A stretch of 64,000 nt of DNA, from sequence record LR597663; one strand, 5' to 3'. The translations under genes and the position numbers were made by a program. Every line of letters starts with the position of its first letter. Positions within the stretch are counted from its first letter, which is position 1. Positions 530-43,454 of this stretch are shown one piece after another. Below the pieces are notes generated by a model. That model made no database searches, was not told the DNA's origin, and worked only from the letters and a program-made list of their open reading frames with translations. Source of the stretch: Escherichia phage VpaE1_ev78.

Positions 530-575
530 GTTGTTGACAAAGTACTTGACAAGGTGTAGGCTTATAAATACTTAG
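530..575 (+). promoter_or_regulatory. promoter-like element with tandem TTGACA hexamers (GTTGACAAAGTACTTGACAAGGTGT), A/T-rich -10 candidates downstream
   Basis: Two TTGACA boxes 12 nt apart followed by TATAAATA; near-identical copy at about 42018-42048. Confidence 0.45.
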
Positions 576-683
576 AAGATAACTTAAAAGGTTCCTCTAA
601 AAAGGCTATTTAAACAGATATCTTTCTGGATATCTATCTTTTATCTTAAAAGCCTTTTAAGAGGTCTTATAAGAGGCATACCA

Positions 684-2716: not shown

Positions 2717-2794
2717 TCTCTGTTTAGCTCAGCTTGGTAGAGCGTTCCGTTTGGGGCGGTAAGGCCGGAGGTTCAAGTCCTCCAACAGAGACCA
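2717..2794 (+). tRNA. tRNA-Pro (anticodon TGG)
   Basis: Hand-folded cloverleaf: 7-bp acceptor CTCTGTT/AACAGAG, D-loop AGCTTGGTAG, T-arm GGAGG-TTCAAGT-CCTCC, anticodon loop TTTGGGG, CCA encoded. Confidence 0.7.
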
Positions 2795-2801
2795 AATTAA
2801 T

Positions 2802-2879
2802 GTTCCAGTAGACAAAATGGTAAAGTCACCACTCTTTCAAAGTGGATATCTGAGGGTTCAAATCCCTTCTGGAACGCCA
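2802..2879 (+). tRNA. tRNA-Glu (anticodon TTC)
   Basis: Acceptor GTTCCAG/CTGGAAC, anticodon arm CCACT-CTTTCAA-AGTGG, T-loop TTCAAAT, CCA encoded. Confidence 0.7.
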
Positions 2880-2885
2880 GTTTTG

Positions 2886-2910
2886 ACAGAAGACCAATTG
2901 CAGCAAACTT
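2886..2910 (+). repeat. tRNA-spacer motif ACAGAAGACC-N5-CAGCAA, copy 1; followed about 60 nt later by GGTCTGG
   Basis: Motif recurs at about 3053, 3449 and 3535, partial copy near 6168. Confidence 0.6.
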
Positions 2911-2970
2911 AATCTTATTCATCTGAAGGTAAATCGGACAAAGAAGAGATTTGGTCTGGTCATTAAGAAT

Positions 2971-3047
2971 TGCGGGTATAGAGAAAGGGCGTCTCACATG
3001 TCTCATTAGCATGGTATCGGCAGGTTCGACTCCTGCACCCGCCTCCA
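2971..3047 (+). tRNA. tRNA with CAT anticodon (Met / initiator / Ile-lysidine type undetermined)
   Basis: T-arm GCAGG-TTCGACT-CCTGC, acceptor with 1:72 mismatch, anticodon stem built on palindromic CATG; position 37 appears to be T, which is atypical. Confidence 0.5.
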
Positions 3048-3052
3048 AATTT

Positions 3053-3077
3053 ACAGAAGACCGTTTACAGCAATATT
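3053..3077 (+). repeat. tRNA-spacer motif ACAGAAGACC-N5-CAGCAA, copy 2
   Basis: TTACAGAAGACCGTTTACAGCAA; GGTCTGG about 58 nt downstream. Confidence 0.6.
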
Positions 3078-3131
3078 TATTAAATTTTTAGCGGAAAAAA
3101 TTGAAAGATACGGTCTGGTAACACTAAACAT

Positions 3132-3208
3132 GGTTAGGAAGCACATAAGGTATGTGCGGTCGCCTGTTAAGCGAATGGCACAGGGTTCGAATCCCTGACT
3201 AACCGCCA
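3132..3208 (+). tRNA. tRNA-Asn (anticodon GTT)
   Basis: Acceptor GGTTAGG/ACTAACC, anticodon loop CTGTTAA, T-arm CAGGG-TTCGAAT-CCCTG, CCA encoded. Confidence 0.7.
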
Positions 3209-3217
3209 AATTTAAAT

Positions 3218-3305
3218 GTGTCGTTATCCCGTAGATGGTAGCGGTGGGGACTGTAAATCCCTTGTCATTGAGACTCGGTAGGTTCGACTCCTACACGGCA
3301 CACCA
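3218..3305 (+). tRNA. tRNA-Tyr (anticodon GTA), long variable arm
   Basis: 88 nt; acceptor GTGTCGT/ACGGCAC, anticodon arm GGGGA-CTGTAAA-TCCCT, T-loop TTCGACT. Confidence 0.7.
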
Positions 3306-3310
3306 ATAAA

Positions 3311-3388
3311 GGTTATGTAGTTTAATTTGGTTAAAATACTCCCCTGTCACGGGAGATGATGAGGGTTCAAATCCCTTCGTAACCGCCA
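3311..3388 (+). tRNA. tRNA-Asp (anticodon GTC)
   Basis: Acceptor GGTTATG/CGTAACC, anticodon arm CTCCC-CTGTCAC-GGGAG, T-loop TTCAAAT. Confidence 0.7.
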
Positions 3389-3448
3389 ATTTTGAGAGGG
3401 CTATTTAGCCCCTCCCTTAAAGAGTTCTTACGAGTATTCTTTAAAGGA

Positions 3449-3472
3449 GCAGAAGACCAAATACAGCAAGTT
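3449..3472 (+). repeat. tRNA-spacer motif, copy 3 (GCAGAAGACCAAATACAGCAA)
   Basis: Same motif family; GGTCTGG about 67 nt downstream. Confidence 0.55.
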
Positions 3473-3534
3473 ATTTAAAATTTCAAGCCAATTTAATTTT
3501 GAAAAATTTAAAACTTGGTCTGGCTCAACAAATT

Positions 3535-3560
3535 TACAGAAGACCGTTTACAGCAAAACT
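3535..3560 (+). repeat. tRNA-spacer motif, copy 4 (TTACAGAAGACCGTTTACAGCAA)
   Basis: Identical core to copy 2. Confidence 0.6.
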
Positions 3561-3591
3561 TAACAATCTATTTCTCCGGTAAAGAAAAGGC

Positions 3592-3626
3592 GAAGGTTCG
3601 ATTCCTTCACTCGGCAGATGTCGAGT
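3592..3626 (+). ncRNA. tRNA-like minihelix: canonical T-arm (GAAGG-TTCGATT-CCTTC) directly followed by a 7-bp acceptor-like hairpin (ACTCGGC-AGAT-GTCGAGT); no D or anticodon arm found
   Basis: T-loop consensus present but no complementary 5-prime acceptor strand within 120 nt upstream; complementary strand lies immediately downstream. Confidence 0.4.
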
Positions 3627-3668
3627 TGGTGTAATGGTAGTACTTAAGATGATAAACAACGGTCTGGT

Positions 3669-3688
3669 AATTATCTTTGTAGATAAGT
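3669..3688 (+). repeat. hairpin element TTATCT-TTGT-AGATAA preceded by GGTCTGG
   Basis: Second copy with inverted loop (TTATCT-ACAA-AGATAA) at about 3795-3810; the two flank roughly 105 nt. Confidence 0.55.
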
Positions 3689-3792
3689 TATTAAGCTTAC
3701 CTGTGAGTATGCGACCACAAAGGGTGAAAGGGTAAATTCTAGATTTAAACCCAAAAAGGCACATCGCTACAGACCTTAAGCAAGTCTGGGTA

Positions 3793-3812
3793 GCTTATCT
3801 ACAAAGATAATT
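3793..3812 (+). repeat. hairpin element TTATCT-ACAA-AGATAA, second copy, preceded by GTCTGGG
   Basis: Reverse complement of the copy at 3669-3688. Confidence 0.55.
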
Positions 3813-3816
3813 TAAT

Positions 3817-3892
3817 GGAAGTGTAGCAGAATGGTGATGCGGCAGACTTTTAATCTGACAGGCGATGGGTTCGAATCCCTCCACTTCTACCA
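3817..3892 (+). tRNA. tRNA-Lys (anticodon TTT)
   Basis: Acceptor GGAAGTG/CACTTCT, anticodon loop CTTTTAA, T-loop TTCGAAT; two outer T-stem mismatches. Confidence 0.6.
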
Positions 3893-3896
3893 ATAT

Positions 3897-3973
3897 GGTT
3901 CAGTCGCAGATAAGGTAATGCAAGGGTCTCATAAGCCCTATGAATGTGGGTTCGATTCCCATCTGAACCTCCA
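3897..3973 (+). tRNA. tRNA-Met (anticodon CAT)
   Basis: Acceptor GGTTCAG/CTGAACC, anticodon arm AGGGT-CTCATAA-GCCCT, T-loop TTCGATT, CCA encoded. Confidence 0.65.
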
Positions 3974-3974
3974 A

Positions 3975-4050
3975 GCTGGTATAGTTAAGAAGGTTATAAC
4001 ACTCCCCTGATAAGGGAACATCGGTGGTTCGATTCCACCTACCAGTACCA
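3975..4050 (+). tRNA. tRNA-Ile (anticodon GAT)
   Basis: Acceptor GCTGGTA/TACCAGT, anticodon loop CTGATAA, T-arm GGTGG-TTCGATT-CCACC. Confidence 0.65.
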
Positions 4051-4065
4051 ATTTCAATAAAGTTG

Positions 4066-4094
4066 TTGACATTGAGATGTGACTACTTTATAGT
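4066..4094 (+). promoter_or_regulatory. sigma70-like promoter (TTGACA, 17 nt, TATAGT)
   Basis: Near-consensus hexamers with 17-nt spacer inside the tRNA array. Confidence 0.6.
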
Positions 4095-4298
4095 AACCTT
4101 AGTTTTCGTTGCGTAGCGTCTATTTTGCAAATTTAAAATAAATGCAAACGACAATGTTTTTCTGGCAGTAGCTTGATAGGCTAAACACCAGTGAGGTCTT
4201 CCAATCCCTCATCAAAGAATTTGGCGTACTCGCCCACGGTATGATTAATAAGGTGGGCATCTTTAAGGGCTTTCTAAGAGAGTCTTTAAAGATAATTA

Positions 4299-4380
4299 CG
4301 GGGCGTATCTCAGCGGTCTTCTAAACCGCCGTTAACCGAGTAAGTGGAGTATGCGGGTTCGAGTCCTGCCGCCTCGACCA
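4299..4380 (+). tRNA. atypical tRNA-like gene (82 nt): acceptor and T-arm canonical, anticodon-like hairpin with loop CTTCTAA (TCT, Arg-like), no recognisable D-arm, 23-nt extra region
   Basis: Acceptor CGGGGCG/CGCCTCG, T-arm GCGGG-TTCGAGT-CCTGC, CCA encoded; the only strong internal hairpin is GCGGT-CTTCTAA-ACCGC right after positions 8-9. Confidence 0.45.
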
Positions 4381-4394
4381 ATTTTGGAGAAATC

Positions 4395-4742
4395 ATGAAA
4401 ACTTGTATTAGGTGCAAACTTAGCAAGGATGAAAATGATTTCTACATGAAAGATGGTAGGAGAACTCATTCATACTGTAAAAAGTGTGTTAATGAGCAAA
4501 CCATAGAAAGACAAAGAGCACTTAAACTCTCAGCTATTGAGTACAAAGGTGGGGTTTGTCACGATTGTGGTAAAAAGTATCATCCAGCAGTGTATGACTT
4601 CCATCATTTGAATCCTTCAGAGAAAGATTTTAACATTGGTCATAGGAAAAGCCTTAAGTTCTCTCAAGAACTAAAAGATGAACTTGACAAATGTGTTTTG
4701 CTATGTTCAAATTGCCATAGGGTAAGACATGCAAAGTATTAG
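4395..4742 (+). CDS. HNH homing endonuclease
   Basis: Motif DFHHLNPSEKDF...CVLLCSNCHRVRH; ORF-track start lies inside the upstream tRNA, so trimmed to ATG at 4395 (RBS GGAGA). Confidence 0.8.
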   Translation: MKTCIRCKLSKDENDFYMKDGRRTHSYCKKCVNEQTIERQRALKLSAIEYKGGVCHDCGKKYHPAVYDFHHLNPSEKDFNIGHRKSLKFSQELKDELDKCVLLCSNCHRVRHAKY

Positions 4743-4885
4743 TTAGCAGATTACTTAGACGACCTAAGCGGGTCTTCCTGTAGGGAGGTGGTCTGTATCT
4801 CATGTTTTCCAGAACATGTAAATAATCTGAGAAGAAGCTTGACAGTGTTGAGATAACAGGGTAAGCTTCGAATTATAGTTTTAAT

Positions 4886-4956
4886 AGGGGTGAGCTATGG
4901 CAGCAATAGAGTCTCCAAAATTCTTGATTAGAGTTCGAATCTCTACACCCCTGCCA
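4886..4956 (+). tRNA. tRNA-Trp (anticodon CCA), short with reduced D-arm
   Basis: Acceptor AGGGGTG/CACCCCT, anticodon arm AGAGT-CTCCAAA-ATTCT, T-arm TAGAG-TTCGAAT-CTCTA; about 71 nt. Confidence 0.55.
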
Positions 4957-4970
4957 GAACAGGTGCTTGT

Positions 4971-5375
4971 ATGAAACTTTGTAGAAAATGTTCTCAAGAA
5001 AAGCCTTTAAGCTGCTTTCATAAAAGAGGTAATGGCTATCAGTCTGCTTGCAAAGATTGTAAAGCTAAGTACTCAGCAAAGAGATACAAAGAAGACCCTA
5101 CTTATAAAGCAAAAAGAAAAGTTAGGGCAAAATATGACAAAAAGAGGAACAGAGAGTTCCTTAGTAGATATAAAAAGTTTTGCAAATGCAGAATATGTGG
5201 CGAATCTGAGCCAGTAGCTTTGGATTTTCATCACTTAGACCCTAAAGAGAAAGATTTTGCTCCAAGCAATCTTAAAACTTACTCTAGGGGCACTATTAAG
5301 CGTGAAGTCCGTAAGTGTGTTGTGCTTTGTTCAAACTGTCATAGGAAAGTTCATGAAGGACTGTTAAGTATTTAA
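4971..5375 (+). CDS. HNH homing endonuclease (paralogue of 4395..4742)
   Basis: Motif DFHHLDPKEKDF...CVVLCSNCHRKVH; RBS AGGTG. Confidence 0.8.
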   Translation: MKLCRKCSQEKPLSCFHKRGNGYQSACKDCKAKYSAKRYKEDPTYKAKRKVRAKYDKKRNREFLSRYKKFCKCRICGESEPVALDFHHLDPKEKDFAPSNLKTYSRGTIKREVRKCVVLCSNCHRKVHEGLLSI

Positions 5376-5388
5376 CAGTCTTATTAGG

Positions 5389-5476
5389 GGTAGGTAGCGG
5401 CTAATGGTAGCCAAACTGTCTTGAAAACAGTTGCCACTGTAGAGATACGGTGAGGGTTCGACTCCTTTACTTACCG
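5389..5476 (+). tRNA. tRNA-Ser (anticodon TGA), long variable arm
   Basis: Acceptor GGTAGGT/ACTTACC, anticodon arm ACTGT-CTTGAAA-ACAGT, T-loop TTCGACT; CCA not encoded. Confidence 0.65.
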
Positions 5477-5633
5477 CCTAATAAGATTTAAAGCCAAGCT
5501 TCATTCGGATGTTGCTTTGGTATCCCGCGTGTATTGTTGTACACACTGATAAAGCACCTAGTAGGTGTCACGGAGAAGAGATAATATCAAGCTCTCCAAA
5601 GGTTCTAGTCACCGGATTAAACAAGACTATGCA

Positions 5634-5654
5634 AAGACCTTTTTAGGTCTTTTT
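5634..5654 (+). terminator. possible intrinsic terminator or processing hairpin (AAGACC-TTTTTA-GGTCTT plus TTTT)
   Basis: Short hairpin followed by T-run inside the tRNA array. Confidence 0.3.
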
Positions 5655-5733
5655 AGAGGGCTTCTAAGGTTATTACAGCTTGTTGTGGAACCTTGTTGCT
5701 TAGGTTCTTAGAAGTTCTCTAAAAAGATTTAAT

Positions 5734-5811
5734 GGGAGATTGACGGTAATTGGTAAACCTATCTCGCTTAGAACGAGATGTTTGAGGGTTCGAATCCCTT
5801 GTCTCCTACCA
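5734..5811 (+). tRNA. tRNA with TAG anticodon (nominally Leu) but type-I short variable arm
   Basis: Acceptor GGGAGAT/GTCTCCT, anticodon arm TCTCG-CTTAGAA-CGAGA, T-arm GAGGG-TTCGAAT-CCCTT; variable region about 5 nt. Confidence 0.55.
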
Positions 5812-5818
5812 AATTAAT

Positions 5819-5894
5819 GCAGGTGTAGCAAAATGGTTATGCGGCTGACTCTTAATCAGTAAGACGATGGGTTCAATTCCCTCCACCTGTACCA
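5819..5894 (+). tRNA. tRNA-Lys (anticodon CTT)
   Basis: Acceptor GCAGGTG/CACCTGT, anticodon loop CTCTTAA, T-loop TTCAATT; similar to the 3817 tRNA. Confidence 0.6.
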
Positions 5895-5899
5895 AAAAT

Positions 5900-5975
5900 G
5901 GGGTCATAGTTTATATGGTTAAAATTCGAGTTTTGCAAACTTGGGAACTGAGTTCAATTCTCAGTGACTCCACCA
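5900..5975 (+). tRNA. tRNA-Ala (anticodon TGC)
   Basis: Acceptor GGGGTCA/TGACTCC, anticodon arm CGAGT-TTTGCAA-ACTTG, T-arm CTGAG-TTCAATT-CTCAG. Confidence 0.65.
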
Positions 5976-5981
5976 ATTAGT

Positions 5982-6056
5982 GCATCCATAGTTTAAACGG
6001 GAAAATTACAGTCTTCCAAACTGAGGTTGAGGGTTCGATTCCCTCTGGATGCTCCA
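5982..6056 (+). tRNA. tRNA-Gly (anticodon TCC)
   Basis: Acceptor GCATCCA/TGGATGC, anticodon loop CTTCCAA, T-arm GAGGG-TTCGATT-CCCTC. Confidence 0.65.
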
Positions 6057-6063
6057 AATTAAT

Positions 6064-6139
6064 GCTCCTATCGTATAATTGGCTATTACGGTTGCCTTGT
6101 AAGTAACTTATCAGGGTTCGAATCCTTGTGGGAGCACCA
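6064..6139 (+). tRNA. tRNA-Thr (anticodon TGT)
   Basis: Acceptor GCTCCTA/TGGGAGC, anticodon arm GTTGC-CTTGTAA-GTAAC, T-loop TTCGAAT. Confidence 0.65.
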
Positions 6140-6236
6140 ATTTAGAGGTCAAGTGAAAGACCGCTTTGAGTCAACTGAAGACCGTAACAAATTCCACGGA
6201 GTTGAGTTAGCGGCACAACTCCAGACCTCTTCTCAC

Positions 6237-6311
6237 ACTCGCTTAGTTTATATGGTAAAACACCACCCTTACAAGATGAAGAAAAAGGTTCAAGTCCTTT
6301 AGTGAGTACCA
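6237..6311 (+). tRNA. tRNA, probably Val (anticodon TAC); weak anticodon stem
   Basis: Acceptor ACTCGCT/AGTGAGT, T-arm AAAGG-TTCAAGT-CCTTT, anticodon loop CTTACAA with two stem mismatches. Confidence 0.45.
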
Positions 6312-6312
6312 T

Positions 6313-6390
6313 GTTCCAGTATCCCAATTGGCAGAGGATGCAAGCTCAAACCTTGTACTAGTGATGGTTCGAATCCATCTTGGAACACCA
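6313..6390 (+). tRNA. tRNA with CAA anticodon (nominally Leu) but type-I short variable arm
   Basis: Acceptor GTTCCAG/TTGGAAC, anticodon arm GCAAG-CTCAAAC-CTTGT, T-arm GATGG-TTCGAAT-CCATC. Confidence 0.5.
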
Positions 6391-6395
6391 ATTTT

Positions 6396-6471
6396 GCAGG
6401 ATTAGTTCAAATGGATAGAGCAACAGTCTACGAAGCTGTTAATAGGGGTTCAAATCCCTTATCCTGCGCCA
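6396..6471 (+). tRNA. tRNA-Arg (anticodon ACG)
   Basis: Acceptor GCAGGAT/ATCCTGC, anticodon arm ACAGT-CTACGAA-GCTGT, T-loop TTCAAAT. Confidence 0.65.
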
Positions 6472-6490
6472 ATTTAAAGAGGCTATTTAG

Positions 6491-7048
6491 ATGAGATATT
6501 TGAAGTATGCTTCATGGATTTTCTTAGCTTTGTTAGAACCATTTGCAGCAATCTTAGCAGTTATCTTAGCACCTTTTGTAGTTCCATTCTACAGTGAGAA
6601 GAAAGGACACTTACCTTTCGGGTTCAGATGGATGGAGACATATGACAACCCAATTGATGGTGATGAAGGTCACGTTAAAAGATGGGCTAATATTAGATGG
6701 ATTGGTAAACTAGGTGTCTACATGCAAAGAGTCGGATGGCTCTGGAGAAACAAAGCTTATAACTTCTCTTACCATGTGTTAGGAAGAGATGTAAAAGATG
6801 TTACTAAGTGGAAAGGTAATATCAACGTAAGTTCTAACCCTGAAGATAATCAGACAGGTTATCTCCTAATGTGGAACAGTAATGCTTGGGGATTATTCGC
6901 TTTTACCCCATCAATTAAAATCTTTGGTAAACAGTTTTACTGGAGAATTTATATTGGGTGGAAGCTAAAAAGTGTTGTCCCAGAAGAAAGAGCATTCTCA
7001 AGGGAAAGAGTTATGTTGGCATTCTTTATTCATCCACTAAGAAAGTAA
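6491..7048 (+). CDS. Trp-rich membrane protein of unknown function (185 aa) inside the tRNA array
   Basis: RBS AAAGAGG; hydrophobic N-terminal segment WIFLALLEPFAAILAVILAPFVVPF; many Trp residues. Confidence 0.65.
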   Translation: MRYLKYASWIFLALLEPFAAILAVILAPFVVPFYSEKKGHLPFGFRWMETYDNPIDGDEGHVKRWANIRWIGKLGVYMQRVGWLWRNKAYNFSYHVLGRDVKDVTKWKGNINVSSNPEDNQTGYLLMWNSNAWGLFAFTPSIKIFGKQFYWRIYIGWKLKSVVPEERAFSRERVMLAFFIHPLRK

Positions 7049-7056
7049 AGATTTAA

Positions 7057-7132
7057 AGGGGATTAGTTTACAAGGTTAAAACCTCGGTCTTTGAAATCGA
7101 AGAAGTTGGTTCAATTCCAACATCCCCCGCCA
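7057..7132 (+). tRNA. tRNA-Gln (anticodon TTG)
   Basis: Acceptor AGGGGAT/ATCCCCC with 1:72 mismatch, anticodon loop CTTTGAA, T-arm GTTGG-TTCAATT-CCAAC. Confidence 0.6.
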
Positions 7133-7134
7133 AT

Positions 7135-7213
7135 GCTCCATTACTCCAATTGGCAGAGAGGCCAGACTTAAAATCTGTGTTATGTATCGGTTCGAATCCG
7201 ATATGGAGTACCA
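7135..7213 (+). tRNA. tRNA with TAA anticodon (nominally Leu) but type-I variable arm (about 7 nt)
   Basis: Acceptor GCTCCAT/ATGGAGT, anticodon loop CTTAAAA, T-arm ATCGG-TTCGAAT-CCGAT. Confidence 0.5.
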
Positions 7214-7218
7214 AATTT

Positions 7219-7294
7219 AGCGGTATAGCATAACTGGCAATGCAGCAGCCTCTGAAGCTGTCCTATTAAGGTTCAAATCCTTATGCCGCTGCCA
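7219..7294 (+). tRNA. tRNA-Gln (anticodon CTG)
   Basis: Acceptor AGCGGTA/TGCCGCT, anticodon arm GCAGC-CTCTGAA-GCTGT, T-arm TAAGG-TTCAAAT-CCTTA. Confidence 0.6.
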
Positions 7295-7325
7295 CTTCTA
7301 AGGATTCTTACGAGAGTCCTTAAAT

Positions 7326-7401
7326 GTGGCCTTATCATAAATGGTAATGACCCATGCTGTGAACATGGTCTATACGGGTTCAAATCCCGTAGGTCACCCC
7401 A
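7326..7401 (+). tRNA. tRNA-His (anticodon GTG)
   Basis: Acceptor GTGGCCT/AGGTCAC, perfect anticodon arm CCATG-CTGTGAA-CATGG, T-arm ACGGG-TTCAAAT-CCCGT. Confidence 0.7.
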
Positions 7402-7406
7402 ATTTA

Positions 7407-7481
7407 TAGTCCAAGTAGCTTATATGGTTAAAGCGCGTGTCTGAAAAACATGAGAAGAGGGTTCAAATCCCACTGGACTAC
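7407..7481 (+). tRNA. tRNA-Phe (anticodon GAA)
   Basis: Acceptor TAGTCCA/TGGACTA, anticodon arm CGTGT-CTGAAAA-ACATG, T-loop TTCAAAT; CCA not fully encoded. Confidence 0.6.
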
Positions 7482-7499
7482 CAATTTCAAAGGTGCTTA

Positions 7500-8234
7500 A
7501 TGAAAGAGATGACAGAACAAGGTAAGGAGATTTTTAATCTCTTAAAAACCGGTAAAGGGTTCTCTAACCCACTTATTACTGGTGCAGCAGTTCTCGGTGG
7601 AACCGTAGCTGCTTCTACATCACTTGTAAGCTCTATTAGTTCTGTAACAGACCCTACAATGAAGGAGAAACTTGTTGCTGCTGGACTTACAACAGTCCTT
7701 CTAAACAGCTTTACAACAAGCCTTACAAGCACTACAGCAACTACTAAAACTCTGACAGACTACGGTCAAAAGTCTATTGATGAGTTTTCATCACGTATGC
7801 AGGTAGCAAAGGGGTATTCCAATGTTATGGGTGCAGCAGGAGAACAAGTTGGTTGTACACCATTCAGTGGTATCATGGGTGTTGCTACAGAGTATGGTCA
7901 AAAAGCTATTGACATGATGAACAGTACACTAGATAGTGTTAATGGTGTGTTAAGTGACTTGCAAGATGCTATTGATAAGGGTCTTGATACTGTTTCTGAT
8001 TTAGCTAATCAGGCTGTTAGTAAGATTAATGAAGGTATTTCAAAGATTACAGCTTATGCAGATGAAGTTGTGCAGATGATTGAAGAAGAAGCTGCCCTTA
8101 TTGCAGAGTACCTTAAAACGAATATCAATGGGTTCTTAGCAGGTATCTTACCAGACTGGTTTGATGATGCCTGTAAAACTGGTGTGATTGACACTATTGC
8201 AACACCAGAAATGAAGAGCGCATTACAGAAATAA
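7500..8234 (+). CDS. hypothetical Ser/Thr/Ala-rich protein (244 aa) inside the tRNA array
   Basis: ORF-track start overlaps tRNA-Phe; trimmed to in-frame ATG at 7500; low-complexity T/S/A/G-rich middle. Confidence 0.5.
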   Translation: MKEMTEQGKEIFNLLKTGKGFSNPLITGAAVLGGTVAASTSLVSSISSVTDPTMKEKLVAAGLTTVLLNSFTTSLTSTTATTKTLTDYGQKSIDEFSSRMQVAKGYSNVMGAAGEQVGCTPFSGIMGVATEYGQKAIDMMNSTLDSVNGVLSDLQDAIDKGLDTVSDLANQAVSKINEGISKITAYADEVVQMIEEEAALIAEYLKTNINGFLAGILPDWFDDACKTGVIDTIATPEMKSALQK

Positions 8235-8236
8235 AT

Positions 8237-8329
8237 GGAAGATTAACCCTAAAAGGTAAGGGAGCAGTTTGCTAAACTGCCAGTAGCTGAGAAATCGGTG
8301 TACCAGTTCAAGTCTGGTATCTTCCTCCA
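8237..8329 (+). tRNA. tRNA-Ser (anticodon GCT), long variable arm
   Basis: 93 nt; acceptor GGAAGAT/ATCTTCC, anticodon arm GCAGT-TTGCTAA-ACTGC, T-arm ACCAG-TTCAAGT-CTGGT; starts 3 nt after upstream stop. Confidence 0.7.
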
Positions 8330-8333
8330 ATTT

Positions 8334-8409
8334 GAATCCGTGACAGAAATGGCTATGTGCCTGTCTGCAAAACAGGTTTATAAGGGTTCGAGTCCCTTCG
8401 GATTCTCCA
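8334..8409 (+). tRNA. tRNA-Cys (anticodon GCA)
   Basis: Acceptor GAATCCG/CGGATTC, anticodon arm CCTGT-CTGCAAA-ACAGG, T-arm AAGGG-TTCGAGT-CCCTT. Confidence 0.7.
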
Positions 8410-34970: not shown

Positions 34971-35300
34971 TTAATCTGCCAGCCTTAAATTAAAATTAAC
35001 ACCAAATTTTTCGCATACTTCCAACATATACTCAAGGGAGACATTACCAGTGAGGTGGATTATGTTGGATACGCGAGCCTGAGAGATACCACAAATTTTA
35101 GCAACTTGCTCTTGAGAAAGACCTCTGGATTTAATCTCTCTCTTAAAACGATGTGCAACGAAATCTCTCATTTCGTCTACATCCATTGGACAAATATAAC
35201 TCTCCATTTCAGCCTCTCTGTCAGCCTCCCAATCATCTTGTGGAGCATAAGGGTCAAAAACCTCATTCATCTTTCTTCTTCCGTTTTCGTGAAGTGTCAA
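34971..35300 (-). CDS. helix-turn-helix DNA-binding protein (XRE/Cro-like)
   Basis: C-terminal HTH-like segment LSQEQVAKICGISQARVSNIIH. Confidence 0.55.
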   Translation of the reverse strand: MTLHENGRRKMNEVFDPYAPQDDWEADREAEMESYICPMDVDEMRDFVAHRFKREIKSRGLSQEQVAKICGISQARVSNIIHLTGNVSLEYMLEVCEKFGVNFNLRLAD

Positions 35301-38722: not shown

Positions 38723-39250
38723 TCAACTTAGTTTTGCAAACTCTCCGTGGAGTTTAGTAGCAGCTTCACAGTAAGCTTTATGGGCTTCTTCAGGTGTGTC
38801 ATAGTATCCTAATGACATCTTTTTACCTTTATAGCTTATTTGCGCAACCCACCTACCAGACTTCTTCTTCAGGCTTACACCCTTATAGCCTGATTTATTG
38901 GTGGATAGTTTGCTTTTATTCCAAGCACTTTGGTAGTCATCTGCTTCTCTTAAGTTTGCAATCCTGTTATCAAGGGAGTCCCCGTTAATATGGTCAATAA
39001 CACCTTTCGGTAACCTGCCATACACGTACAGCCATGCGAGTCTGTGCGCTTTATGTGCTTTCTTGTCAAAATAGATAGTAATCTGCTTATGACCAGTTGA
39101 GTCAATCTGAATGCTCCCCGCTACCTGTCCTGCGTGCTGACTATTAAAAACTTTAACAGCCTTTGAGTCACCCTCTCTACGAAGCCAAGTAAAGACCCCT
39201 GTTTCGGGGTCATAGTGTAGTAGTTCCTTTAAACGTTCTTGTGTAATCAT
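38723..39250 (-). CDS. HNH homing endonuclease with AP2 DNA-binding domain
   Basis: HNH-like GVIDHINGDSLDNRIANL followed by AP2-like GYKGVS...GRWVAQISYKGKKMSLGYYDTPEEAHKAY. Confidence 0.75.
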   Translation of the reverse strand: MITQERLKELLHYDPETGVFTWLRREGDSKAVKVFNSQHAGQVAGSIQIDSTGHKQITIYFDKKAHKAHRLAWLYVYGRLPKGVIDHINGDSLDNRIANLREADDYQSAWNKSKLSTNKSGYKGVSLKKKSGRWVAQISYKGKKMSLGYYDTPEEAHKAYCEAATKLHGEFAKLS

Positions 39251-39260
39251 TTTGTCACCA

Positions 39261-41960
39261 TTAATGCACTTCCAACCACGATTTACCAACCTTACCAGTA
39301 CCAGTTACCAGTGTTTCACTCTTTAGTCCTAAGTTCTTAGAGGCTTGCCCGTAATACCAATCAGTGACAGCTTTCACCTCTGCCGTCATACTTTCTGGGC
39401 ATTCCCAACTCGTCTCGTCGTGATAGGAGCACAATAAACGAGCACCTATAGCTGGTTTGCGACCGTTCAACTTCATCAAACCTTCGTCAATCATACGACG
39501 GCAAGCAAGGTTAATTGCCTCGTTCTGAATCTGACTTTCCGAACCCATGAGCAAATAATTCAATAGCTTATGCGGAGATTTACACCACAACCAAGCTCCA
39601 GCAACCTTTACAAAACCCCCTTTAGAGATTGCAGCAGTCTTACCAAACACCTCTTCAAGTGCCTTTTTAGTTGCTTTGTAGTCAGCTTCCAAGTCATCTA
39701 GTAGCTTCTTAATTTTAGGCAAACGAATAAAGTAAGTTTGTTTAGTCAGTGCACCTTCCTGAGTAGTTGCAGCTTTAATCGTCTTAGCAAACTTCTCATC
39801 CCCTGCACCGAACAGCAGTGCATAGATACCATTCTTAGCTTTCTTACGGCCTTTGCTAATCTCATGAAGAAGGTTCTCATCCTGAGTAGCTCGACAAGTC
39901 AAGATGTCCTGCTCATCATTCAAGCTAAAGTAAATACTGTTCAGTGTATGTGCATCAGTCCCTGAATAGACAACGTACAGGTCATTCTCAGAGTCATAGC
40001 GAAGGTACTTATCAATCTCTGGGTTGAGGTACTCATCAAAATGTTTGCAGTAATAGCGTCCATCTTCTTGACGAATGAACTCAATCTCTTCTTTACCTTG
40101 CGTTACCGCTTTGGTGAAGTCTTTATCGCCCATAAAGTTACAAAGAAGAACTAGCTGGGCTGAGTTCATATCTACAGAGACAACGTTAGTACCTTCCTCA
40201 CAAATCCACACTGCCCTCATTGGTTCTCCATAGACAGCAGCACCAGACGGTACGTTTACAATACCATACTGTGTCATACGTCCAGTTGAAGTACCAAACA
40301 CCATTGCACCAGCACTAAGGCGACCATCAGGACGAATCTGGTTCAACCAACCTTTTTCATCATCCTTTGAGTTCTCAATAGTTCTGCGTCTGTGCATCAA
40401 AGTATAGTACTTAGCAATCTTCTGTCCAAGCTCACCTTCAATCGTATCATAAGATGATTCCGTAAGTTTTGGTGAAGTACGGATTAAGCAAGGTTCAAGC
40501 AAATCTGTGTACTTCTTCACAGACCAGTTATGCTCGATGTACTGGACGCCTTCATGCTCGACATAACTCAAACCACACCGTTCAACCATCTCCTGCCACT
40601 TAGGATGCTTTGTAATCATCTTTTTGTTGTCTTTGAAACGACAAACTTTGACAGGGCGACCATCTGAGTCTTTCTTGTAGTTCCAGTCATCTGGAATCCA
40701 ACCAACTGATTTCAAGTAGTCTTTAACAACTGCTACCTGAGTCATACGAGAAACTTCAAACTCAATTGGTGTATATGGTGCATCAATCAATCCTGTGTAG
40801 CGACTTGAATCCAGTTCAAAGTGGTTAACAACATGGCTGTTATAGTACTTCACAGTCTTAACTGTCTTCACTGGCTTCCAGTCTTTGCATTTCTTACCAA
40901 TCTTTGCATTCAACTCGTTGCAAATTGCACGAGCATCCTTCATTGCTACAAAACCTTCCTTGTACTCTTCACCAGTTACAGAGTTGGTTGGTGTATAGCA
41001 ATTTCTCTTTTCAATGTTAAAAATCTTTGTAGTTGGCTTACCAAATGGCTTGATTTCATATGTCTGCATCTCACCGTTACGTACCTGCTGACGGTACTTC
41101 GTCTTAGGGTACTTGGTAATTCTCTTCAGTCCATCTGCATGACCGAACGCTTCAACATACTCATTCCAAGCTTTTGCAAACTCTTCTCCAGTAACTTTAC
41201 CTTTAGTCTTAATAGTTGGAGGAAGATGTGGTTCAACTTCTGAAGCAAGCTCATTAGTCAACTTGTCAAGTTCCTTCACATGGAACTCCATAAGCTCTTT
41301 ATCAGCTTTCCAACCATTGATAGCTTGTTGACTCATCCAGAAAGATGTTTCTTTAGCTCGCATATAGGTTTCATAAGTGTCTATACCACACTTCTTTAAC
41401 TTCAGGTATTCATTATCCAGTGCACGTTTAGTTTTGGCGTTAATACGGATATCTTCTACAACACGAGTGAAGATTTCTGCATTCCACACACCCCAATGTT
41501 CAATCTCTGGTTTACGTACACCAACACGAGCACCCCATGCTGCCAAGCCATGAGCACCTTTATAGCCTTTTGGAGTTGGTCTATCCATCCACTGAACACG
41601 AGATTGGATAAGAGAATCCTGAAAGAAATTACTCCACGGCTTACACTTTGGATTATCAAAGTTCCATAAATCAGGTGCAATGTGATTGAAAACCCACCAG
41701 TCATAACCCAGACCATTATGGATGCAAAGTCGTTTCGCCTTTAATGCAAACTCAATACCTTCACGCAAACCACCCTTAATGTACTTGGTGTACTTGTGAC
41801 CGAGGATAGGCTCATCTGTAAAAACCCATACAGGTGGCTCTTCATCATCAGATTTATAGTCTGCGAAAGCCATTACGTGCACTTTAGTGAACTCAAGGAG
41901 TAAACCATCAGTTTCTGTATCACCAACTAAATGTAAGTTTTTAAAATCTACGTTTTCCAT
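39261..41960 (-). CDS. family A DNA polymerase with 3-5 exonuclease domain
   Basis: Exo I motif GDTETDG, motif B-like KNGIYALLFGAG, motif C CSYHDE; start trimmed to ATG after GAGGGAG RBS. Confidence 0.85.
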   Translation of the reverse strand: MENVDFKNLHLVGDTETDGLLLEFTKVHVMAFADYKSDDEEPPVWVFTDEPILGHKYTKYIKGGLREGIEFALKAKRLCIHNGLGYDWWVFNHIAPDLWNFDNPKCKPWSNFFQDSLIQSRVQWMDRPTPKGYKGAHGLAAWGARVGVRKPEIEHWGVWNAEIFTRVVEDIRINAKTKRALDNEYLKLKKCGIDTYETYMRAKETSFWMSQQAINGWKADKELMEFHVKELDKLTNELASEVEPHLPPTIKTKGKVTGEEFAKAWNEYVEAFGHADGLKRITKYPKTKYRQQVRNGEMQTYEIKPFGKPTTKIFNIEKRNCYTPTNSVTGEEYKEGFVAMKDARAICNELNAKIGKKCKDWKPVKTVKTVKYYNSHVVNHFELDSSRYTGLIDAPYTPIEFEVSRMTQVAVVKDYLKSVGWIPDDWNYKKDSDGRPVKVCRFKDNKKMITKHPKWQEMVERCGLSYVEHEGVQYIEHNWSVKKYTDLLEPCLIRTSPKLTESSYDTIEGELGQKIAKYYTLMHRRRTIENSKDDEKGWLNQIRPDGRLSAGAMVFGTSTGRMTQYGIVNVPSGAAVYGEPMRAVWICEEGTNVVSVDMNSAQLVLLCNFMGDKDFTKAVTQGKEEIEFIRQEDGRYYCKHFDEYLNPEIDKYLRYDSENDLYVVYSGTDAHTLNSIYFSLNDEQDILTCRATQDENLLHEISKGRKKAKNGIYALLFGAGDEKFAKTIKAATTQEGALTKQTYFIRLPKIKKLLDDLEADYKATKKALEEVFGKTAAISKGGFVKVAGAWLWCKSPHKLLNYLLMGSESQIQNEAINLACRRMIDEGLMKLNGRKPAIGARLLCSYHDETSWECPESMTAEVKAVTDWYYGQASKNLGLKSETLVTGTGKVGKSWLEVH

Positions 41961-42017
41961 TTTTACTCCCTCTAAAATCATTAACCTCATACATTACTGC
42001 AAAAAATTATAAAAAGC

Positions 42018-42048
42018 AAGTTGACAATGTACTTGACAAGGTGTTAAT
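42018..42048 (+). promoter_or_regulatory. promoter-like element GTTGACAATGTACTTGACAAGGTGT (second copy of element at about 530)
   Basis: 27 of 28 nt identical to the copy near 531-556; sits in AT-rich divergent intergenic region. Confidence 0.5.
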
Positions 42049-42217
42049 CTTTGCGAAGTGGGTTTTTACTTAAAAGGTTACTTAACAGTTTAACTATACA
42101 GATACTTTAAAACTCTTAAAAGATTATTTAATAGCTTTTAAAAAGCTTTAAAGTATAACGTATAGAATACGTTAAGATAAAAGATTAGAACTTAATAGTT
42201 ACTTAAAAGAGGCTTAC

Positions 42218-42640
42218 ATGCAGAAAATGTTTGTTCACCCAGACATAGCTGACTTTGTTAGAGCTTTGCAGAAGTTGGAAGAACTTGACATTGCTGCTCA
42301 ACGGGAATATGCTCACCATCACAGGAGAATGGTTGATATACAACATGAAATAGAGTTGTCTGAAAACTATGAAGATGACTTAAAATGCTCTGTATTTGAG
42401 CATATGAAAGATGTTGCTACAGCTAGACGTAAAGCTAAAGACACAGTTGCTTTACTAGATTCTCTTAAAAAGAGGTTGCAAAGTGGTACAGACCTGTGTA
42501 ATCTAGCGTCACTGATTAACGATGTTGAAACTTCTTGGGATAGGCACTATTATCCACGTTCTGAAAAGACACTTGACTTTTCTTCATCAGAAAACTTAAA
42601 ATGTTCTAGAAAGAAACTTAACCAACTGAGAGAGAAATAA
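42218..42640 (+). CDS. hypothetical early protein (140 aa)
   Basis: RBS AAAGAGG; first gene after divergent control region. Confidence 0.55.
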   Translation: MQKMFVHPDIADFVRALQKLEELDIAAQREYAHHHRRMVDIQHEIELSENYEDDLKCSVFEHMKDVATARRKAKDTVALLDSLKKRLQSGTDLCNLASLINDVETSWDRHYYPRSEKTLDFSSSENLKCSRKKLNQLREK

Positions 42641-42641
42641 T

Positions 42642-43454
42642 ATGAATATCGATGTAGAAAAGATGCTTGAAGAAAAAGGTATTGACGAAGCATTTTTAAT
42701 CAATGCCGTAGAAAGCATGGCTATGATTCTTCGTGGGAACAACTACACAGAACAGTTTATGCCTGCAAGCTACAACTTGCCTGAAGACAAGTCTGATAAC
42801 GGTGCTTTTGCAGAACAGGTCAACATGATGCTTTGTGACAAAAAACTTGCTTTAGCATCTATTGTTGTAGGTGTCGATGCTCTTGCAGAGTTCATTTTTT
42901 ATGAGATGCAGAAAAATGACTATATTGCCATGACCTCTGAAGAAAAAGACTCACTACTGCTCTTAGATAATAATGAGCTAATTGACCTGTTAATTTCGTC
43001 AACGAGTGCTGTTATGGCTGCTCTTGAGAAGCGAATGGAAGAGAAGCTGTCACGATATGAAAAGCTTGATTGGGGTGTAGAGGAATTAAACCCACGAATC
43101 AAAGAGATTATCCAGCAAACCAAAGATTCTTTGGAAGAAGCTGTAAAAAATGATTCTGTAGCTGACATAGAACCACTTCAGGTGAAAGTTGCATTGATGA
43201 TTCCAGCCATCTCTACGATGATGAATATCGTTGCACTAATCCAGCTTTCACAGATGATGGGCACAAGCATTGAGTTCATTGAGAGTATGACTGGTGGTGT
43301 GAGTATGCAAGCAATCAATGATGTTCTGGTGAGCATTGGTGCTTCAATCATTGAAGAGAAGCTGCGCATTAACTTTGGTGATGATTTTGTGAAGCAAATC
43401 TCAGCTATGGCTGAAAAAGAGTATTCACAGGCTAATACTGACCAACTGCACTAA
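42642..43454 (+). CDS. hypothetical protein (270 aa)
   Basis: Coupled ORF; acidic and helical; no recognised motif. Confidence 0.55.
   Translation: MNIDVEKMLEEKGIDEAFLINAVESMAMILRGNNYTEQFMPASYNLPEDKSDNGAFAEQVNMMLCDKKLALASIVVGVDALAEFIFYEMQKNDYIAMTSEEKDSLLLLDNNELIDLLISSTSAVMAALEKRMEEKLSRYEKLDWGVEELNPRIKEIIQQTKDSLEEAVKNDSVADIEPLQVKVALMIPAISTMMNIVALIQLSQMMGTSIEFIESMTGGVSMQAINDVLVSIGASIIEEKLRINFGDDFVKQISAMAEKEYSQANTDQLH

Follow-up and report, generated by a model that had tools for sequence, protein, structure and literature searches.

A putative divergent control region of Felix O1-like phages with conserved promoter-like cores, phased words and a covarying dyad

Introduction

In phage lambda, OR is a divergent promoter-operator region that lies between PRM and PR and carries three tandem operators. 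The primary origin of phage T7 consists of a promoter followed by an A+T-rich stretch. At the T4 origins oriF and oriG a promoter is likewise followed by easily unwound DNA, and the unwinding element is sequence independent (PMC3016281). A third kind of arrangement is represented by the sites of ArcA-P, 10-bp direct repeats with the core TGTTA that lie 11 bp apart, centre to centre (PMC4173790).

Felix O1-like phages, classical tools for typing Salmonella, are often considered for therapy and biocontrol. In the 2010 genome paper the early promoters, the temporal control and the origin of Felix O1 were stated to be unknown (PMC3185647). Whichard et al. (2010) assumed that divergent early promoters lie in the gap between genes 96 and 97 but did not find a promoter-like sequence there, and their RT-PCR detected transcription of ORFs 96, 101 and 105 within 5 min (PMC3185647). 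That paper does not describe the double TTGACA, the repeated words or the dyad that are the subject of the present analysis. Here we give coordinates for two candidate early promoters, a 24-nt box shared with a second junction, a conserved word array and a covarying dyad.

Results

The window analysed, a 64-kb stretch of the Escherichia phage VpaE1_ev78 record LR597663, is that of a Felix O1-like myovirus of the genus Felixounavirus, to judge from its 97 to 99% identity to many records. The interval between the genes corresponding to Felix O1 genes 96 and 97 is a noncoding gap of 257 bp with 74% A+T (41961-42217), from which the DNA polymerase gene is read leftward and an operon rightward. A preliminary description had located a control region at 41991-42217; the noncoding gap extends 30 bp further to the left. 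The left ORF encodes a family-A DNA polymerase (Pfam DNA_pol_A, and annotated likewise in MK295205), the start of which is most likely the ATG at 41960, behind a GAGGGAG sequence. Because one-base indels occur among strains in 41974-41990, that part is noncoding. The rightward genes encode, in order, a 140-amino-acid homologue of gp97, a 270-amino-acid protein, a dNMP kinase and a Toprim+DnaB primase-helicase. The gap thus separates the leftward polymerase gene from the rightward primase-helicase operon, the placement originally proposed, and RT-PCR in Felix O1 places the transcription of both neighbouring units in the early period (PMC3185647). The coordinates of the features discussed below are collected in Table 1.

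Table 1. Features in and around the gap, with coordinates in the window
Feature	Position	Strand	Remarks
Sister region at the other divergent junction	534-683	+	Same 24-nt box at 534-557; upstream of a DUF5681 gene
Cro/C1-type HTH regulator	34971-35300	-	Pfam HTH_3, 5e-10; PHROG 1373, "transcriptional regulator"
DNA polymerase ATG start	41958-41960	-	Same start annotated in MK295205
RBS GAGGGAG of the DNA polymerase gene	41966-41972	-	Invariant in 21 sequences of 3 genera
Candidate leftward -10, TAATGT (TAGGGT in Mooglevirus)	41991-41996	-	Predicted
Candidate leftward -35, TTGCTT	42014-42019	-	Predicted; 17 bp from the -10, 1 bp from the rightward -35
Double-TTGACA box TTGACAATGTACTTGACAAGGTGT, 24 nt	42021-42044	+	Both TTGACA invariant in 3 genera, at both sites
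Candidate rightward -35, first TTGACA	42021-42026	+	Invariant in 21/21 sequences
Candidate rightward extended -10, TG-T-TAATCT	42042-42050	+	Predicted; 18 bp after the first TTGACA
Main word array	42069-42153	+	Word excess, conservation, phase
Words of the main array	CTTAAAAG 42069, CTTAACAG 42081, CTATACAG 42094, CTTAAAAG 42115, CTTTTAAAAAG 42135, CTTTAAAG 42146	+	
Direct repeat TAAAAGATTA	42117-42126 and 42178-42187	+	Mostly invariant columns
Palindrome AGCTTTT-A-AAAAGCT	42133-42147		Best read as word CTTTTAAAAAG plus neighbours
Inverted repeat TAACGTAT-AGA-ATACGTTA, 8-3-8	42156-42174		7-bp conserved core; candidate operator or hairpin
Last two words	42191-42212 (CTTAATAG 42191, CTTAAAAG 42202)	+	
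Felix O1 gp97 homologue, 140 aa, first rightward gene	42218-42640	+	PHROG 4039, "unknown function"

The 2.5 kb around the gap were matched by 258 phage records, nearly all of them Felix O1-like myoviruses of E. coli, Salmonella, Shigella and Citrobacter; among them, Escherichia phage EcoM2 (Felixounavirus) was 99.5% identical over an 801-base piece. Sixty of the 258 records were sampled, and none annotates any feature in the gap. The gp97 homologue, which has no match in Pfam and no sequence match in the PDB, belongs to a family restricted to the Ounavirinae. Its predicted model is a long helical hairpin (pLDDT 72.5), and a fold search with it returned only generic coiled-coil and helical-hairpin matches.

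Two neighbouring genes deserve a remark of their own. The 270-amino-acid protein (42642-43454, PHROG 4251) is called a "minor tail protein" in many records although it sits in the early replication operon, with gp97 on one side and the dNMP kinase on the other; since it has no Pfam match, the label looks like a propagated misannotation. The minus-strand gene at 38723-39289, which encodes an HNH endonuclease carrying an AP2 DNA-binding domain, shares 29 bases with the 3' end of the polymerase gene; the enzyme is likely to be a free-standing homing endonuclease. In Erwinia phage phiEa104 an HNH gene lies on the other side of the polymerase gene, between it and the control region.

To measure conservation, the gaps of 21 phages of three genera (Felixounavirus, Suspvirus and Mooglevirus) were aligned. 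Identity between genera was 0.81 to 0.86 over the gap and 0.83 to 0.93 over the promoter core, against 0.53 to 0.65 at third codon positions of the flanking genes, and the gap is thus more conserved than synonymous sites by 20 to 30 points. Within the genus, the gap was at least 99% identical in 152 of the 258 records, whereas the best match over the surrounding 2.5 kb reached 97.4%. These comparisons indicate that purifying selection acts strongly on nearly all of the gap, with the repeated words described below as its conserved units. The right part of the gap, about 160 bp, is not a neutral spacer.

The tandem TTGACA that had drawn attention to the region is present, its second copy at 42033-42038, and the pattern occurs twice in the window, where 0.11 occurrences are expected. 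A block, AAAAAGCAAGTTGACAA, that contains the -35 candidates of both strands is invariant in all 21 sequences. The 24-nt box around the double TTGACA has the consensus TTGACAAnGyACTTGACAAGGTGT and is found in exactly two copies per genome, both pointing rightward; the next best match has seven mismatches. Scanning viral contigs with a 16-mer of the box gave mostly chance matches and zero new relatives.

With the first TTGACA as its -35, the candidate rightward promoter would have an extended -10 whose pattern, TG.TA.TCT, is invariant, the hexamer being TAGTCT in some genera. TAATCT matches TATAAT at three of six positions, keeping T1, A2 and T6, and has a TG one base upstream; a transcript is predicted to start near 42056-42057. 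On the other strand, the candidate leftward -10 lies about 24 nt before the polymerase start codon. It is weak, with a three-of-six match to the consensus, and its T, A, G and T positions are invariant whereas the adjoining bases vary. Variation across the 21 sequences affects the sequence of the spacers but neither their length nor the promoter hexamers. More distant relatives have comparable arrangements: Hafnia phage Zyzzx has TTGACA-17-TATTGT rightward and TTGCAA-17-TACTAT leftward, and Erwinia phage phiEa104 has TTGACA-18-TACATT rightward. For these two phages BLAST aligned only the coding part of the polymerase gene, and their gaps lie outside the alignment.

Within the gap, a standard promoter scan of 41800-42400 called a single weak promoter-like sequence, which is on the minus strand; the rightward -10 escaped the scan because that hexamer matches at only three of six positions. 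The same interval contained no G+C-rich hairpin with a T run behind it, as an intrinsic terminator or attenuator would have, and the literature that we searched held no transcript maps or 5'-end data for Felix O1-like phages. Two other candidates were discarded. A minus-strand TATAAT at 42011-42006 is not conserved outside Felixounavirus and lacks a properly spaced -35 as a polymerase promoter, and a Pho-box-like double TGTCA on the minus strand has a 12-bp spacing (10 in Hafnia), a geometry that does not fit. A plain sigma-70 model assigns no role to the second TTGACA, although it is invariant. The designation of the gap as a divergent control region is supported by the early expression of both units (PMC3185647), the strong purifying selection and the conserved promoter-like cores on both strands.

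The second copy of the 24-nt box lies at the other divergent junction of the genome. It corresponds to the Felix O1 promoter "P41", TTGACA-N15-TATAGG (PMC3185647). The box is present in the 96-97 gap too, followed by a weaker -10, and no comparable promoter was reported there (PMC3185647). Because the box recurs just once, and at a divergent junction, the two rightward units are probably switched together. The sister region resembles the gap further in having an A+T-rich stretch with the words CTTAGAAG, CTTAAAAG, CTTTTAAG and CTTATAAG, nearly invariant across the three genera; only two other 100-bp stretches of the window are less stable.

Several other elements were observed around the sister region. 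It holds the perfect palindromes AGATATC-N6-GATATCT (616-635) and CTTAAAAG-C-CTTTTAAG (645-661), and within 292-683 a conserved TTGACT-17-TACCAT lies on the minus strand, to the left of the box. A 471-amino-acid protein encoded at 1137-2552 is annotated "RNA-binding protein" in EcoM2, and its only Pfam matches are DUF2828 and DUF7788. Directly downstream of it are 24 tRNA genes (2718-8406).

The repeated words that had also been noted proved to be the strongest part of the first observation, and the palindromes the weakest. The gap contains three copies of CTTAAAAG (0.055 expected), five of CTTAA[ACT]AG (0.09 expected) and seven of CT-N4-AG (1.3 expected), a 5- to 50-fold excess over the expectation from local composition, with P values of 0.00035 or less. 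From about 42057 to the RBS, nine words of the form CT-(A/T-rich 4-7)-AG are in phase at 11.0 bp (Rayleigh R of 0.88 at this period, P about 0.01). These are multiple copies of one word, beyond chance and regularly spaced, as in iteron-type or binding arrays. The final CTTAAAAG overlaps the RBS AAGAGG (42207-42212) of the first rightward gene. In the last words the inner letters differ between genera (CTTAATAG, CTTAACAG, CTATAAAG) while the outer CT..AG is kept, and over 42060-42202, excluding the dyad at 42156-42174, invariant columns make up 88% of the words versus 64% of the linkers (P = 0.002). No 8-mer of the genome is more strongly enriched in intergenic DNA than CTTAAAAG, which has 20 of its 37 copies in the 11% that is noncoding. 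In the homologous gaps of Hafnia phage Zyzzx and Erwinia phage phiEa104, words of this family again exceed expectation, with counts of 12 (2.1 expected) and 5 (1.0 expected). Both copies of the direct repeat TAAAAGATTA are complementary to TAATCTTT at 42045-42052. A lambda boxA-like CTCTTAA was set aside since it is not conserved.

Two palindromes had been singled out in the preliminary description, and both exist, at coordinates that needed correction by 2 to 5 bases: AGCTTTT-A-AAAAGCT is not at 42128-42142 but at the position given in Table 1, and AACGTAT-AGA-ATACGTT is at 42157-42173 rather than 42159-42175 and extends to the 8-bp arms TAACGTAT and ATACGTTA. Among 5,000 dinucleotide shuffles of the 257 bp, 14% had an arm of at least 8 and 8.6% had two palindromes with arms of at least 7, so that the palindromes taken by themselves are not beyond chance. 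Their conservation differs. The symmetry of AGCTTTT-A-AAAAGCT is lost without compensation in Suspvirus (AAG) and in the sequences L023 and L030 (CCTTTT), and as an RNA hairpin it equals shuffles (z = -0.15); we therefore rejected it as a selected hairpin or operator. TAACGTAT-AGA-ATACGTTA, on the other hand, is kept in all 21 sequences, with 7 of 7 pairs of its core intact in each, a degree of pairing unmatched by 500 shuffles. Two of its pairs have changed on both sides (U-A in 15 sequences and A-U in 6; C-G in 14 and U-A in 7), compensatory changes that may represent only two evolutionary events. Of the two palindromes, then, only the CG-containing one behaves as a selected dyad. Its exact copy is unique in the window, other matches carrying two to three mismatches.

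It is against this background that we judged the possibility that the gap holds nothing specific, being an A+T-rich spacer whose palindromes and words arise from composition. The 9 to 14% of region shuffles that contain such palindromes and the uncompensated decay of AGCTTTT-A-AAAAGCT are what such a spacer would produce. The conservation of the gap, the excess of words, their occurrence in distant relatives and the covariation of the dyad all contradict it, and we regard it as very improbable.

The phage encodes a small Cro/C1-type HTH regulator, the real start of which is likely the methionine of MNEVF. It was found in 258 records of the Felixounavirus, Suspvirus and Mooglevirus type (260 with two unrelated Zymomonas matches), and the records that carry it and those that carry the gap give the same organism tally. 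In the Erwinia and Hafnia relatives the regulator was not detected, and the gaps of both also lack the dyad. The dyad, whose symmetry is kept in evolution and is of the size expected of a Cro/CI-type operator (about 14 to 19 bp), thus has the same phyletic spread as an HTH_3 protein of the phage. It does not overlap a promoter core, and several related sites were not found in the window. The TAGAAT in its centre lacks a properly spaced -35. A position about 109 bp downstream of the predicted rightward start and a single occurrence are both unusual for an operator of this type. Since the words persist in the Hafnia and Erwinia phages, where the HTH protein was not detected, that protein is not their reader. 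An operator cluster, as first suggested, is plausible from these comparisons: the words are conserved, nonrandom and phased, one palindrome covaries, and an HTH regulator is encoded by the very phages that carry this palindrome.

The same dyad could instead act in RNA. The 160 nt would then be a 5' leader in which the dyad hairpin and the sense-strand words are recognized by an RNA-binding protein or a ribonuclease, with control of mRNA stability or of gp97 translation as the outcome. The double-sided changes, which preserve pairing in 21 of 21 sequences, are what a hairpin would show, and the recognition helix of the HTH protein, SQ(A/S)RVSNI, does not covary with the dyad variants, a result that protein coevolution explains no better than a hairpin would, and perhaps less well. 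All five CTTAA[ACT]AG are on the sense strand, with none antisense, and the last word abuts the RBS. The hairpin itself is weak, at -5.8, -4.9 and -3.5 kcal/mol in its three variants, as a whole the leader shows no more structure than shuffled sequence (z = -1.5), and the minimum free energy fold omits the local hairpin. Rfam has no match for the gap: searched at E values up to 1, the region gave only a chance snoRNA match (E = 0.42) outside the gap, and at the gathering score the whole window gave only tRNAs. The 11-bp phasing, and a period in common with a noncoding array elsewhere in the genome, point to double-stranded DNA, and transcription of the stretch depends on a promoter that is itself putative. 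Control at the level of RNA, whether of stability or of translation, seems unlikely to us, though it is the most probable of the alternatives. Another hairpin-based function was rejected. The virion polymerase of phage N4 uses a hairpin promoter with a 7-bp stem and a 3-nt loop. No such polymerase is known in the Felix O1-like phages (PMC3185647).

The gap had also been suggested as a replication origin, with cumulative GC skew as the check. The minimum of the cumulative skew does fall at the gap, yet it lends the suggestion no support, since the skew follows gene orientation: over the full genome its sign flips at every change of gene orientation. In EcoM2 the coding-strand skew is 0.09 to 0.14 in all four transcription units, while at third codon positions it is about 0 (-0.02 to +0.07), with no difference between units that would be co-oriented with and head-on to forks from the gap (P = 0.85). 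The skew thus arises at first and second codon positions and is uninformative on replication; the V shapes of the cumulative curves in these genomes reflect gene orientation, and GC skew is unusable for placing their origin. DnaA boxes (TTWTNCACA with at most one mismatch) are absent from 41961-42217 and below chance in the window as a whole.

Duplex stability gives a different picture. Neither the 64-kb window nor the 88-kb genome of the close relative EcoM2 has a duplex less stable than 42062-42211 at 100 or 150 bp, and in the window this holds at 60 bp as well; the stretch lies about 4.5 standard deviations from the mean. This A+T-rich, easily unwound stretch begins just after the promoter-like core, and the gap lies between the genes for a family-A polymerase and a Toprim+DnaB primase-helicase. 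A persistent R-loop of the early transcript in this easily melted DNA could prime leading-strand synthesis by the T7-like polymerase and primase-helicase, in the manner of T4 oriF and oriG and of the T7 primary origin. Such a transcription-primed origin can coexist with a promoter function of the gap. Beyond the silent skew and the missing DnaA boxes, it is opposed by the conservation of specific words, which a pure melting role does not explain, by the twin architecture at the second junction, where the genes that follow are tRNA and structural genes, and by the presence in another part of the genome of an 11-bp repeat array that is denser and contains DNA second only to this stretch in low stability. 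On balance we find an origin here rather doubtful.

That array is a 1,661-bp noncoding stretch of EcoM2 (PQ818761.1, 41468-43128; locus L031) at a convergent gene junction outside the window. One of its strands has 30 TGTTA where 3 are expected, its 11-bp autocorrelation reaches z = 23 to 28, and it contains nine CTTAAAAG, counting both strands. The TGTTA core and the 11-bp spacing match the ArcA-P direct repeat (PMC4173790), and the gap has the same 11-bp period and contains some of the same words. Conservation of the array extends over 276 records and across the subfamily, and none of the 14 records listed carries an annotation for it. It may lie in a terminal repeat, because some records start or end there and ZX4221 holds two copies. 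In a further region of EcoM2, the early small-gene region at 35.7 to 40.3 kb, intergenic modules are repeated and 8-mers such as CCCACTAA, GAATCTCC and AAATCCTA are strongly enriched; these modules are probably repeated promoter/terminator units, corresponding to the 57-bp and 39-bp direct repeats of the 2010 paper.

Discussion

We propose, with a probability of roughly 0.6, that the gap is the main early divergent transcription-control region of these phages, built of back-to-back sigma-70 promoters, phased words and a dyad operator. Its left third would hold two host sigma-70 promoter cores with their -35 elements 1 bp apart, as sequence and conservation suggest. The leftward promoter, TTGCTT-17 bp-TAATGT, would drive the DNA polymerase gene, and the rightward one, TTGACA-18 bp with TG-T-TAATCT, the operon of gp97, dNMP kinase and primase-helicase. 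The next 160 bp or so would present nine phased words and one symmetry-keeping dyad to regulators. We envisage the words as a binding array on one face of the helix for a factor that is found throughout the subfamily and is not the HTH protein, and the dyad as the operator of the phage Cro/C1-type HTH regulator. Acting downstream of the start, the word factor and the HTH regulator could set the level or timing of early rightward transcription. If the words are such a binding array, they would represent a regulator-DNA system conserved across a whole phage subfamily.

A more speculative extension, which we think improbable but worth stating, gives the double-TTGACA promoter and the 160-bp array two purposes, as an early switch and as a transcription-primed origin for the T7-like replisome, bound by an Ounavirinae-wide factor that also coats the 1.66-kb array. 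If true, this would be an origin type not described for this phage group.

How does the gap compare with the known systems? Like lambda OR and other Cro/CI-type phage regions, it is a short gap between divergent early genes, with candidate host promoters on both strands, a dyad-symmetric site of about 17 to 19 bp and a small phage-encoded HTH_3 protein. Unlike OR, it belongs to a virulent phage, its single dyad lies about 109 bp beyond the predicted start and not over a -35 or -10, and most of it is a word array that has no counterpart in lambda; an operator role here is putative.

The resemblance to OmpR/PhoB-family arrays such as those of ArcA-P lies in short words on one helical face, 11 bp apart and partly downstream of the start. 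The gap words differ in having CT where ArcA needs GT (CTTAAAAG versus TGTTAAAA), for which reason we rejected ArcA as their reader, and the gap holds only two TGTTA, one per strand.

As to the T4 origins oriF and oriG, the gap differs from them in that its promoter would be of a host sigma-70 type, in having conserved words in place of T4's sequence-independent element, and in having a twin at a junction without replication genes. The replisome of the Felix O1-like phage, with its family-A polymerase and Toprim+DnaB primase-helicase, is T7-like. What the gap has in common with oriF and oriG is a promoter-like core placed directly before the most easily melted DNA of the genome, with replication genes adjoining.
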